Assembly (NCBI GenBank): GCA_028693555.1
Contig: JAQUVD010000026.1
Location: 24,846-48,845, forward strand
Origin: Hespellia sp.
GTDB lineage: Bacteria; Bacillota; Clostridia; Lachnospirales; Lachnospiraceae
DNA length: 24,000 nucleotides
Reading direction: 5' to 3'
Under the pieces are notes generated by a model. It made no database searches, had not been told where the DNA came from, and saw only the letters and a program-made list of their open reading frames with translations. Position 1 is the first letter of the stretch; each line of letters begins with the position of its first letter. A program made the position numbers and the translations under genes. Positions 10,184 through 14,381 of this stretch are shown here, one piece after another.

Positions 10184-10216
10184 AACAATATAAAAATAAT
10201 TGAGAGGAGAAAAAAG

Positions 10217-11011
10217 ATGAAATTAGGATTTATTGGGTTTGGAAATATGGCTAAGGCAATTCTTGGAGGTGTTTTAAAGAATGGAATGGCTGCAAAGGAA
10301 GATGTCATAATCTCAGCGGCACATGAGGAAACCATTCAGAAAGCGGAGGCAGAATTTGGTGTGAAGACAACCTTACATAACTCCGAGGTGGCTGAACAGG
10401 TGGATGTTCTGATTTTAGCAGTCAAACCAATGTACTATGAGGAAGTATTAAAGGAAGTCTCAGAAAAAGTGAGGGCAGACCAGCTTGTAATTTCAATTGC
10501 ACCGGGAAAGACAATGGAGTGGATCACTGCAATACTTGGAGCTGGAAAGAAAGTTGTCCGCACCATGCCAAATACGCCGGCGTTGGTTGGAGAAGGGATG
10601 ACTGCTGTCTGCTATAATGAAGCAATTACAGATGCGGATAAAGAGATGGTGATGGCAATTTTATCATCATTTGGAAAGGCAGAAGAAATCAAAGAATATA
10701 TGATGGATGCGGTGGTTGCAGTCAGTGGAAGCTCACCGGCGTATGTCTATATGTTCATCGAAGCGATGGCGGATGCAGCAGTTGCAGAAGGACTTCCACG
10801 CGCAGCAGCTTATGAATTTGCGGCGCAGTCTGTATATGGAAGTGCCAAGATGGTGCTTGAGACAGGATTGCACCCGGGAGTACTAAAGGATCAGGTATGT
10901 TCTCCGGGCGGTACAACGATTCAGGCAGTAGAAGTGCTAGAGAAAAAAGGAATGCGCAGTGCAATCATGGAAGCGATGACAGCATGTGCAGAGAAATCAA
11001 GAGGGATGTAA
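10217..11011 (+). CDS. proC: Pyrroline-5-carboxylate reductase
   Basis: 264 aa. N-terminal Rossmann motif MKLGFIGFGNMAKAI.., ..RTMPNTPALVGEGMT.., ..SPGGTTIQAVEVLEKKG.. are typical ProC. RBS GAGAGGAG, 33 nt after the GRE stop. Confidence 0.92.
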   Translation: MKLGFIGFGNMAKAILGGVLKNGMAAKEDVIISAAHEETIQKAEAEFGVKTTLHNSEVAEQVDVLILAVKPMYYEEVLKEVSEKVRADQLVISIAPGKTMEWITAILGAGKKVVRTMPNTPALVGEGMTAVCYNEAITDADKEMVMAILSSFGKAEEIKEYMMDAVVAVSGSSPAYVYMFIEAMADAAVAEGLPRAAAYEFAAQSVYGSAKMVLETGLHPGVLKDQVCSPGGTTIQAVEVLEKKGMRSAIMEAMTACAEKSRGM

Positions 11012-12409
11012 ATGGAGAACCGAAATAGCTGGTATCGAAGGCTGCCCAAGGTAGATATTCTAATAGATACAGAGTTTTCGGATGAGGTTGAGCAATATGG
11101 GAAATCGATGGTCACTGTTTGTGTGAATCAGGAGATCTCACGCATTCGTGAAGTGATTCCCCATCTGCATACCGAGGCGGAGCTGATGCAGCAATTACAG
11201 GATCTACATTCTCATATCAAAACAGCGTTGGCAGAATCCCAGAGTCGTCATTTCCGGCGCGTAATCAATGCGACCGGGGTAATTCTCCATACGAATCTTG
11301 GCAGAGCACCGCTTCCGGAAGAAATTGTGACGCGTGCGATGCAGAAGCTGACCGGGTATACGAATTTAGAATATAACCTGCAGTCTGGAGAACGGGGAGA
11401 ACGGTATGCACATTTCGAGGAAATGATTTGCCAGATTACGGGAGCAGAGGCTGCATTTGCAGTGAACAACAATGCAGCTGCGGTTCTGCTTATGATGAGC
11501 GCGCTGGGACAGGGCAGAGAAATCATTGTATCTCGCGGAGAACAGATTGAGATTGGCGGCAAATTCCGTATTCCGGATATCATGGATCAGAGTGGCTGTC
11601 ATCGTGTGGAAGTTGGAACGACAAATAAGACTCGTTTGTCTGATTATGAAGAGGCTCTTACGGAGAACACGGCAGCATTGCTTAAGGTGCATACCAGCAA
11701 TTTCCGAATCGAAGGATTTACCGAAAATGTGAGTCGGCAGGAGTTGGTTACACTGGCACAGCAATATCAGATTCCGGTAATGGAAGATCTGGGAAGCGGC
11801 GTTCTGATTGATTTGTCGCGTTACGGGATCAAGCGGGAGCCGACGGTTATGGATAGTTTAGCGGCGGGGGTAGATCTCGTATCCTTTAGCGGAGATAAAC
11901 TTCTGGGCGGACCACAGGCGGGAATTATTGTCGGTAAAAGGAAATGGGTGGATCTCTGTAAGAAGCATCCACTTACACGGGCGATGCGGGTTGACAAGTT
12001 TACGGTTGCAATTCTGGAGGAAATATTTGCTCTTTACCAGGATTTTTCGTTCGCAATCAGCAAGATTCCTGTTCTCTCGATGCTCACAGCCGATGAGAAA
12101 GCGCTTCGGAAAAAAGCAGACAGATTCTGTGCGCAGTTAGCAGGTCTGCCGTCGGATTATCATGTTCGAACGGTTGTCTGTGAAAGTGCAGCCGGCGGCG
12201 GTTCGTTGCCCGGGGAGGTGCTGCCAAGCGTTGGTGTGCGGATTGAGAACGCCCGCATGCAGGCAGGCGAGGTGCAAAGTAAACTGCATCAGGCGGAAGA
12301 GCCATTGATCCTCAGGGTGGAGAATCAGGGTCTGTTATTGGATATGCGTACGCTATTTCCGGAAGAATTAGACAGGGCAGCGAAGTTATTAAAGGATCAG
12401 TTAAAATAA
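11012..12409 (+). CDS. selA: L-seryl-tRNA(Sec) selenium transferase (selenocysteine synthase)
   Basis: 465 aa. ..RRVINATGVILHTNLGRAPL.. and the PLP-lysine region ..VSFSGDKLLGGPQAGIIVGK.. are characteristic of SelA. The ATG directly abuts the proC stop (TAAATG, 11009-11014). Confidence 0.92.
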   Translation: MENRNSWYRRLPKVDILIDTEFSDEVEQYGKSMVTVCVNQEISRIREVIPHLHTEAELMQQLQDLHSHIKTALAESQSRHFRRVINATGVILHTNLGRAPLPEEIVTRAMQKLTGYTNLEYNLQSGERGERYAHFEEMICQITGAEAAFAVNNNAAAVLLMMSALGQGREIIVSRGEQIEIGGKFRIPDIMDQSGCHRVEVGTTNKTRLSDYEEALTENTAALLKVHTSNFRIEGFTENVSRQELVTLAQQYQIPVMEDLGSGVLIDLSRYGIKREPTVMDSLAAGVDLVSFSGDKLLGGPQAGIIVGKRKWVDLCKKHPLTRAMRVDKFTVAILEEIFALYQDFSFAISKIPVLSMLTADEKALRKKADRFCAQLAGLPSDYHVRTVVCESAAGGGSLPGEVLPSVGVRIENARMQAGEVQSKLHQAEEPLILRVENQGLLLDMRTLFPEELDRAAKLLKDQLK

Positions 12410-12410
12410 T

Positions 12411-14381
12411 ATGGAACATATAATCATAGGAACTGCAGGGCATATCGATCATGGAAAGACGGCACTTATTCGCGCACTGACTGGCAGGGATACCGATACA
12501 TTAAAAGAAGAAAAAAAACGGGGAATTACCATAGACCTGGGGTTTACCTACTTTGATCTGCCAAATGGCAGCAGGGCAGGTGTGATTGACGTTCCCGGTC
12601 ATGAGAAGTTCCTTTCTAATATGCTGGCGGGAGTCTGCGGAATGGATCTTGTTCTGCTTGTGATTGCGTTGGATGAAGGAATCATGCCGCAGACAAGAGA
12701 ACACATGGAGATTCTGCGATATTTGAACATCCGACAGGGAATCCTTGTGCTAACGAAATGCGATCTTGTCGAACCGGAATGGGCTGATATGATGGAAGAC
12801 GAGATTCGTCAGGAATTATCAACAACAATATTTGCAAAGTGGAAATACATTAGAGTTTCATCTGTGGATCGGACTGGAATGGATCAGTTAAAAGAAATGA
12901 TTGCTGTATCATCGAACCAAATGGAGAGGAACAGGGACACGGATGGAAGATGTCGACTTCCGGTTGACCGGGTGATGTCTCTGAAAGGGCTGGGAACTGT
13001 TGTTGCAGGAACACTGTTGGAAGGTGTCCTTCATGTTGGAACGGATGTCATGCTATATCCATCCGGCAGGGAATCCTATATCAAAAGCATACAGGTTCAC
13101 GGAAACAATGTGGACAAAGCATTTGCAGGACAGCGCTGTGCAATGCTGCTTTCCGGTGTGAAAAAGGATGCGATAAAAAGAGGTGTTGTTGTGGCATATC
13201 CGAATTCACTCAGAAATGCAGATCGCCTGGACGTTGTGATTCATATGGACTCGGATACGGAACGGAAAATCAAGAATCAGAGCCGTGTGCATCTTTATAT
13301 TGGAACATCAGAATGTGTGAGCCGGATTGTTCTTTTGGATAAAAATGAACTTCAAAAAGGAGAGAAGGCGTATGCACAGTTGATTTTGGAGGAAGAACTG
13401 GCAGTTCGTAAGGGAGATCGCTTTGTACTTCGGTTTTATTCGCCCCTTGAGATTATTGGCGGCGGAATCATACTAGATGAATGTGCTGTAAAACATAAGC
13501 GAAATGATCCGGAGGTCACCAGCTATCTGAGGAACAAGGAGAATAATCAAGACGAAAGAATTTTAAGACAGGTCATACAGAATTCCGGAAAACCGATTTG
13601 CCCGGAAGAAATCGGGCAATTCTGTAAAATTGAAAAAAATACGTTGAAACTACTGCTGGATGAACTTGAAAAAGAACGAGAGTGTATGGTATTTCAGACA
13701 AAGAACAGGAAATTCTATTGGTCGTATCTTGTAGAAGACACCGTGTGGGAGCAGGTAGAAGTATTTCTGCACCAATACCATCAGGAACATCGTTATCGAT
13801 TGGGTGTAGAAAAGACAATATTGAAAAATCATGTGTTTTCAAAGTGGGAAATCAATCGATTTGACGCATATATGCTATTTTGCAGCAGTGAAGGAAAACT
13901 AGAAGCAGGAAACGATGGAAACAGCTATCACATTGTCGGTGAATATCCGGAAATGGACGAGGAACTTGAAGAATTGGAAAGCCGCCTGAAAAAAGAATTT
14001 CAAACAGCCGGAGTGAATTTCAGAAATGTAAAAGATCTGGTCGGGACTGTGAACGGTCATGATTTTTCTATCGATATAGAAAATTTCCGGGATGCACTGC
14101 AGTTTCTTGCAGTGGAAAAAAAGGTGACGAGAATTTCGGATGAATTCTATACAACAAATGAAATTGCAGAAATAATCAAAGAAAATGTGATACATTATTT
14201 TGAGGAAAATGAAGTGATATCATTTGCGTCTTTACGTGATCTGCTTGGTACAAGCCGAAGGACAGCAAAGCCTCTCATGGCCTATTTAGATGAGCAGAAG
14301 ATTACACAATGGTGTGGAAAAGAGACGGAAAGAAAGAGGTACCAATGGAAAAAAAGCAGGCAATTGGGTATTGACAAATGA
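12411..14381 (+). CDS. selB: Selenocysteine-specific translation elongation factor
   Basis: 656 aa. EF-Tu-like GTPase N-terminus (IIGTAGHIDHGKTALIRALTG, DVPGHEKF, TKCD) plus a long C-terminal winged-helix extension of the size expected for the SECIS-binding part of SelB. Starts 1 nt after the selA stop. Confidence 0.92.
   Translation: MEHIIIGTAGHIDHGKTALIRALTGRDTDTLKEEKKRGITIDLGFTYFDLPNGSRAGVIDVPGHEKFLSNMLAGVCGMDLVLLVIALDEGIMPQTREHMEILRYLNIRQGILVLTKCDLVEPEWADMMEDEIRQELSTTIFAKWKYIRVSSVDRTGMDQLKEMIAVSSNQMERNRDTDGRCRLPVDRVMSLKGLGTVVAGTLLEGVLHVGTDVMLYPSGRESYIKSIQVHGNNVDKAFAGQRCAMLLSGVKKDAIKRGVVVAYPNSLRNADRLDVVIHMDSDTERKIKNQSRVHLYIGTSECVSRIVLLDKNELQKGEKAYAQLILEEELAVRKGDRFVLRFYSPLEIIGGGIILDECAVKHKRNDPEVTSYLRNKENNQDERILRQVIQNSGKPICPEEIGQFCKIEKNTLKLLLDELEKERECMVFQTKNRKFYWSYLVEDTVWEQVEVFLHQYHQEHRYRLGVEKTILKNHVFSKWEINRFDAYMLFCSSEGKLEAGNDGNSYHIVGEYPEMDEELEELESRLKKEFQTAGVNFRNVKDLVGTVNGHDFSIDIENFRDALQFLAVEKKVTRISDEFYTTNEIAEIIKENVIHYFEENEVISFASLRDLLGTSRRTAKPLMAYLDEQKITQWCGKETERKRYQWKKSRQLGIDK

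Follow-up and report, generated by a model that had tools for sequence, protein, structure and literature searches.

In a 24,000-nucleotide (nt) stretch of a Hespellia sp. genome (assembly GCA_028693555.1, contig JAQUVD010000026.1, positions 24,846 to 48,845 of the forward strand; hereinafter, the window), the genes for selenocysteine (Sec) synthesis and delivery, selA and selB, follow without any spacer the gene proC, which encodes pyrroline-5-carboxylate (P5C) reductase and itself stands behind hypD, the gene for trans-4-hydroxy-L-proline dehydratase, and the gene for its activase. We consider it probable, rather than certain, that this arrangement is a lineage-specific operon fusion in Hespellia-like Lachnospiraceae species, with the genes co-transcribed and translationally coupled. 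The five genes are all intact, all on the plus strand, and form one uninterrupted block with the following features (positions are those of the window; scores are NCBIfam bits, compared with the curated cut-offs).

6741..6769, plus strand: promoter-like site, likely the operon promoter, upstream of the activase gene (TTGACA, 17 nt, TAAACT, with TG)
6791..6827, plus strand: leader hairpin with a U7 tract, a possible attenuator before the whole block (-19 to -22 kcal/mol)
6876..7793, plus strand: gene for the HypD-activating radical-SAM enzyme (NF043069, 403 bits, slightly below the cut-off of 425; TIGR02494, 321 bits, above the cut-off of 174)
7808..10183, plus strand, with 7808 as the likely start in an open reading frame that opens at 7790: hypD, trans-4-hydroxy-L-proline dehydratase (NF043068, 1454 bits; cut-off 1100)
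10217..11011, plus strand: proC, P5C reductase, with a strong Shine-Dalgarno (SD) sequence, -9.1 kcal/mol (TIGR00112, 296 bits; cut-off 197)
11001..11014, plus strand: GAGGG SD sequence within the last proC codons, TAA stop codon and the abutting selA ATG (read from the sequence)
11012..11019, plus strand: left copy, ATGGAGAA, of an 8-nt direct repeat flanking the segment that is absent from the related contig L067 (see below)
11012..12409, plus strand: selA, L-seryl-tRNA(Sec) selenium transferase (TIGR00474, 586 bits; cut-off 268)
12407..12413, plus strand: selA stop codon, 1 nt, selB start codon (TAAtATG; read from the sequence)
12411..14381, plus strand: selB, Sec-specific elongation factor (TIGR00475, 359 bits; cut-off 242)
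14345..14352, plus strand: right copy, ATGGAAAA, of the same 8-nt direct repeat
14415..14678, plus strand: T-box leader and terminator (RF00230, 105 bits; terminator -24 kcal/mol)

The score of HypD identifies it as a HypD equivalog and, with the adjacent activase gene and the P5C reductase gene 33 nt 3' of hypD, all the hallmarks of a hypD-proC cluster are present; the family match of the activase starts at residue 51 of an open reading frame that opens at 6741. Direct reading of the sequence bears out most of the junctions described in the first-pass annotation of the window, namely the 33-nt gap between hypD and proC, the proC stop codon (TAA, 11009-11011) that abuts the selA ATG at 11012 (TAAATG, 11009-11014), and the selA stop codon (TAA, 12407-12409) that is separated by a single T from the selB ATG at 12411. 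The overlap that had been proposed between the activase and hypD (ATGA, 7790-7793) stands only in part: an ATG overlapping the activase stop codon does exist, but hypD more likely begins further downstream. The ATG at 7808, which is in frame with 7790, carries GAAAGGA 6-7 nt upstream, and in L020, a Logan contig from another species (Eno 90%, ProC 84% and SelA 70% identical), hypD begins 22 nt past the activase stop codon, with the overlapping ATG not in frame; hence the hypD start is probably at 7808, which would make the activase-hypD gap 14 nt. The gaps of 0 nt between proC and selA and of 1 nt between selA and selB are within the spacing of coupled gene pairs, and such tight packing is unexceptional in the window, where all co-directional junctions are at most 33 nt long.

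The strength of the predicted pairing with the anti-SD sequence declines along the block, being strong for proC, moderate for selA (-6.6 kcal/mol, spacing of approximately 6 nt, within the last proC codons) and weak for selB (-5.3 kcal/mol, 13 nt away), and the same pattern is seen in L020. In the window, the AAAGGA motif lies 13-14 nt before the selB ATG, in agreement with the earlier remark that selB has no well-spaced SD sequence; in both species, the only SD-like element of selB is 13 nt away, and this shared mis-spacing fits coupling of selB to selA. The start regions of selA and selB are less structured than shuffled controls (z of +1.8 for the selB start region). The first 30 nt of selA (11012-11041) are identical in L020 and in two other relatives (L001 and L024), with the window differing at two sites, and the overall SelA identity among these relatives is just 60-70% despite this near-invariance; a Sec insertion sequence-like hairpin was sought in these 30 nt and rejected given that no convincing stem was found, and the conservation may be largely at the codon level (residues N-R-N-x-W-Y-R). 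We also rejected, as evidence, the possibility that the penultimate Gly codon of proC was altered to create the selA SD sequence: ProC of the congener G402, with no selA downstream, also ends in Arg-Gly (ProC of another congener, G051, has Lys at the penultimate position).

No strong signals that would divide the block were detected either. A consensus scan and a hairpin-plus-U scan of the region 6876-14381 detected no strong terminator, the best hairpin-plus-U candidates being irregular stems of -7 to -12 kcal/mol, compared to the -19 to -24 kcal/mol reached by the leader hairpin (6791-6827) and the T-box terminator (14649-14678). Promoter-like matches in the same region are at the chance level (29 vs 22 ± 4.8 in shuffled sequences), none of them is conserved with L020, proC included, and the 33-nt hypD-proC spacer contains no promoter; thus, the earlier statement that the region lacks promoters and terminators holds for strong terminators and, for promoters, in the sense that only chance-level matches occur. 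For selAB, there is no promoter region directly 5' of selA, as the ATG adjoins the proC stop codon with no spacer. Upstream of the block, both hexamers of the promoter-like site at 6741..6769 are conserved in L020, the leader hairpin is maintained there via G-U pairs, and the identity to L020 over 6762-6821 is 91% or more, the mean being 70%. The first strong terminator 3' of selB is that of the Trp-type T-box leader (RF00230).

The flanks of the block hold several additional elements. The T-box promoter (14371-14399) has its -35 element inside the last selB codons, and the C-terminal tail of SelB beyond WCGKETERK is different in every relative. On the upstream side is an intergenic element of approximately 215 nt (6492-6704) with a bidirectional terminator-like hairpin at its end; its identity to L020 is 93-100%, compared with only about 70-75% for coding DNA. 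Contig C75 of the same genome carries a copy at 89% identity, and the summed contig depth of the element in gut metagenomes is very high. A search of Rfam with the leader and with this element returned nothing at the gathering score; the element could represent a dispersed repeat or a small RNA that has not yet been described. A 12-mer shared by positions 6731 and 14383 (AAAGTCTGTATT) was rejected as a signal because a 24-kb sequence should contain approximately 17 identical 12-mer pairs by chance alone, and because the position of the 12-mer relative to the two promoters differs.

The source of the window is a metagenome-assembled genome, which could raise the suspicion that assembly or binning joined unrelated contigs at the proC/selA boundary. 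The probability of such a chimera is practically nil: contigs from four runs, belonging to four studies, cross the junctions at an identity of at least 99% (X3, 5414 nt over 6634-12046; X6, 3710 nt over 10735-14444; X9, 661 nt over 10897-11557; X2, 1208 nt over 10737-11944), and L020 has the same junction, so that a chimera is excluded. The run that best holds this DNA comes from a landfill, and the same DNA is found in animal-gut and aquatic runs, with a depth of 57-70x for this organism in the animal-gut samples of two studies (P2 and P3).

The first-pass annotation had left room for the adjacency being unique to this strain, which is not the case: the proC-selA junction is kept in L020 and is ancestral to a further relative, L067, even if the clade is narrow. 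In L020, the gene order is the same as in the window from eno through lysR, and the proC stop codon directly abuts the selA ATG (TAGATG). This zero gap is unchanged, whereas the neighboring spacers are not (33 to 51 nt for hypD-proC, 1 to 10 nt for selA-selB), and the 45 nt around the junction (10992-11036) are 93% identical between the window and L020, compared to the mean of 70%. L067 (Logan SRR28746824, 1-1231) encodes a ProC that is 89% identical, has no hypD and carries an extended -10 promoter (TGATATAAT) directly before proC. After the proC stop codon, L067 contains ATGGAGAA, that is, the first 8 nt of selA, joined to the last selB bases and the T-box leader; in the window, the two copies of the direct repeat, ATGGAGAA and ATGGAAAA, lie on either side of the segment missing from L067. 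Because selA natively starts with this scar octamer in relatives without proC upstream (L001, L021 and L024), the sequence comparison identifies L067 as a selA-selB deletion derivative, the ancestor of which already had the zero-gap junction; the possibility that the remnant represents in-frame last codons of selB was rejected upon translation, which shows selB in another frame. Run X6 additionally contains, at lower depth (18 vs 70), a joint in which hypD is bypassed, and the letters of this joint match the sequence upstream of proC in L067. In another relative, L068 (ENA ERZ27239218, 416-2250; ProC 82% identical), proC has its own promoter (TTGACA-17-TACAAT) behind a terminator, and selD starts 14 nt past proC, followed by a gene for a response-regulator/PAS/GGDEF/EAL protein; with this proC-selD pair, proC is linked to a selenium gene in a second way.

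Across the family, selA was found in 62 of the 400 other genera surveyed, 24 of which also have HypD. The prevailing order is selD-selA-selB, with selD directly upstream of selA in 36 of the 40 sampled genera (gaps of 9-147 nt); thus, selA is normally an internal operon gene located behind selD, and here no selD is directly upstream. Three congeners (G051, G401 and G402) have no true HypD and no PrdA, and G051 and G401 have no selA either; the sel-prd genes occur among the congeners either all together or not at all. In G051 (Hespellia sp. in NCBI), the order eno-secG-rnr-smpB-alk-DUF1275-proC occupies the corresponding place, and ProC is 83% identical; because this genome keeps proC at the same position, the comparison identifies proC as the resident gene and its flanking genes as the variable ones. 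G402 has a distant selAB on a contig other than that of proC; these genes (C80:5823-9124 and C80:18808-19161; products 48% and 42% identical) are near a glycine/sarcosine-reductase-like gene, not prd or proC. Other close relatives of SelA are encoded in selA-selB pairs that are convergent with a prd cluster and lie behind other genes, namely those for an aldo-keto reductase, a TusA-like protein (9 nt upstream of selA) and an iron-containing alcohol dehydrogenase (Fe-ADH; 2 nt upstream of selA). A search of JGI metagenome contigs with a degenerate junction pattern and for SelA-based loci yielded no match, and the SelA search of genome contigs yielded only three loci, none with proC upstream.

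Downstream of selB, on the minus strand and convergent with it, are prdB, a small gene with a CBO2463 domain, prdA, prdC, tRNA-Sec and a LysR-type regulator gene, with the main features as follows.

17449..18177, minus strand: prdB with one in-frame TGA, the client selenoprotein gene (TIGR04483 on both halves)
18434..21625, minus strand: prdA and prdC of the D-proline reductase cluster (TIGR04480, 916 bits; TIGR04481, 619 bits)
21647..21743, minus strand: selC (tRNA-Sec), just upstream of prdC
21811..22713, minus strand: LysR-family regulator beside selC-prd (best match NF040786, 147 bits, under the 250-bit cut-off)

Thus, prdB lies 3 kb downstream of selAB, near selC, and selA, selB, selC and the TGA-containing prdB are all located within 11 kb, forming a cluster of Sec-trait genes with their client. 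PrdB, with a single TGA inside its gene, is the sole TIGR01918 match in the genome (99% complete), and GrdA and FdhA were not found there in a survey of selenoproteins that covered SelD, the PrdB/GrdB family, GrdA and FdhA. The selD gene is on another contig (C74:34354-35394). The tRNA-Sec gene is located between lysR and prdC in three lineages (window 21647-21743; L020 20498-20594; L003 15553-15649), and this shared lysR-selC-prdC order makes it probable that selC and the prd genes are transcribed together. On the same contig, approximately 2 kb past the end of the window and after an amino-acid ABC transporter, there is a gene of the proline racemase family (C17:50872-51837); the apparent absence of prdF in the window is therefore not an absence from the locus. 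The genome contains a single copy of proC (one tblastn match) as well as proA and proB; with this as the only P5C reductase gene, proC probably serves also in proline biosynthesis and so would be needed without hydroxyproline (Hyp) too.

Under the operon fusion scenario, a semi-mobile module, in which selA-selB is convergent with lysR-selC-prdC-prdA-prdB, would have come to sit directly behind the only proC of the chromosome in one small clade, with the HypD activase/HypD pair joining on the other side, directly before proC. The five genes would then most likely be co-transcribed from the 6741-6769 promoter, through the conserved leader hairpin, with transcripts reaching no further than the T-box terminator at 14649-14678. 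Translation of selA would be carried out by ribosomes passed on from proC or by fresh initiation, whereas selB would most likely depend on ribosomes finishing selA, as in the overlapping selAB pair of E. coli. The block would supply L-proline from hydroxyproline along with the Sec-tRNA synthesis and delivery for PrdB, the selenium subunit of D-proline reductase. Co-transcription with ribosome hand-over appears to be the simplest reading of this anatomy because the hypD-less relatives have a clear promoter directly before proC, where none is found here, and because selA of this family is usually located inside an operon.

Several observations weigh against such a functional unit. In none of the 24 genera of the family that have both HypD and selA is hypD near selA; 28 of the 33 other HypD-positive Clostridia genomes (20 genera, outside the family) have selA, which never adjoins hypD; and the three congeners lack the adjacency. 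The selA gene owns a moderate, correctly spaced SD sequence inside proC, so that coupling to proC is not required. The conserved leader hairpin with its U-tract would stop most transcripts unless bypassed, yet the block holds the sole proC; because this attenuator-like leader precedes the only P5C reductase gene in a genome that has proA and proB, an undetected internal promoter is plausible. Furthermore, the link was lost again in L067 and is rare, indicating that selection for it is weak or local.

Some of these facts also speak for a neutral adjacency, an account that we regard as possible and clearly less likely than the operon fusion: the sel-prd module and the hypD pair would have landed at a plastic site around proC, the zero gap would reflect compaction with no regulatory meaning, and selA-selB would be expressed mainly from an internal constitutive promoter in hypD or proC. 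The locus is indeed highly variable, with DUF1275-proC-response regulator in G051, promoter-proC-scar-T-box in L067, promoter-proC-selD in L068, and different arrangements again in L069 and L071; the packing of selA behind the Fe-ADH and TusA-like genes in the close relatives, the probable requirement for proC expression without Hyp and the SD sequence of selA itself point in the same direction. However, the promoter-like sites in the block do not exceed the chance level and none is conserved, the clear promoters that L067 and L068 have directly 5' of proC have no counterpart in the 33-nt spacer of the window, and the exact zero spacing was retained in L020 while the neighboring spacers changed.

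At the opposite extreme, the first-pass annotation had suggested a feed-forward design, which can be specified as Hyp releasing the leader terminator, such that one induced transcript would raise the levels of both P5C reductase and the Sec machinery, priming PrdB synthesis. The presence of hypD, proC, selA, selB, selC, prdCAB and the proline racemase family gene in one neighborhood, PrdB being the sole selenoprotein detected among the major families tested, the conservation of the leader hairpin, and the second proC-selenium link in L068, where selD is directly behind proC, are all compatible with this design. We nevertheless find it doubtful, given that Prd requires Sec also when proline itself rather than Hyp is the substrate, and that proC is biosynthetic as well. 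Moreover, the arrangement is rare, confined to a narrow clade and lost in L067, HypD-positive, selA-positive Clostridia mostly manage without the link, and selA both possesses its own SD sequence and is held equally tightly behind unrelated genes (Fe-ADH, TusA-like) in its close relatives. The operon fusion, with probable co-transcription and coupling and with no design of this kind implied, remains the explanation that we favor.

The hypD-proC hydroxyproline utilization cluster of Clostridia was reportedly already known from the work of Levin et al. in 2017. The adjacency of the two genes has been described (PMC6219649, Huang et al. 2018; PMC9044972, Reed et al. 2022), and the locus analyzed here resembles this cluster in that the activase, the HypD glycyl-radical enzyme and the adjacent P5C reductase gene are all present and the organism also encodes prd, so that Hyp is expected to feed Stickland proline reduction. 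It differs in that C. difficile has a second P5C reductase gene (PMC9044972), whereas proC is the only copy here and occupies the place where G051 keeps its own proC, and in that the gapless selA-selB behind proC is mentioned in neither PMC6219649 nor PMC9044972. The selA-selB pair itself is like that of E. coli K-12, where selB also directly follows selA (a 4-nt overlap vs the 1-nt gap here), except that E. coli selA has an upstream intergenic region, whereas in the window selA directly adjoins the upstream cistron, which is proC. As in the selD-selA-selB operons of Lachnospiraceae, selA is an internal operon gene tight behind a co-directional gene, but proC takes the position of selD. Sec-decoding genes clustered with a single client are known as well, in the form of selA-selB-selC beside fdhA (PMC1794560, Zhang et al. 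2006); the present neighborhood similarly combines selA, selB, selC and one detected selenoprotein gene, all-or-none among close relatives, with the differences that the client is PrdB rather than FdhA and that hypD and proC, which supply its substrate, are fused to the block. In line with the statement in the first-pass annotation that the arrangement did not seem to have been described, our literature search found no paper joining hypD/proC to selAB. Collectively, this is a real but local gene-order variant, the components and pairwise links of which (hypD-proC, selA-selB, and sel genes beside a selenoprotein gene) are already known.

The practical reach of the arrangement is limited, as only a few uncultured Lachnospiraceae species, from gut and landfill, have it. 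These genomes nevertheless provide a natural series for the gain and loss of the Sec trait with its client enzyme, from the full block (the genome analyzed here, G000, and L020) through the selAB deletion scar (L067) and proC-selD (L068) to the empty site (G051). The Sec machinery of model organisms is regarded as housekeeping and constitutive. It seems rather unlikely that Sec insertion capacity in this clade is substrate-induced, with a putative Hyp-responsive leader controlling one mRNA for the Hyp dehydratase, the sole P5C reductase, SelA and SelB; if it were, the synthesis of PrdB would be licensed by the arrival of the precursor of its substrate, and the independent proC-selD junction of L068 would represent a second solution to the same need. 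More generally, if selA-selB truly ride on a hydroxyproline/proline operon, this locus would be an example of the capacity for selenoprotein synthesis being tied to one catabolic pathway.

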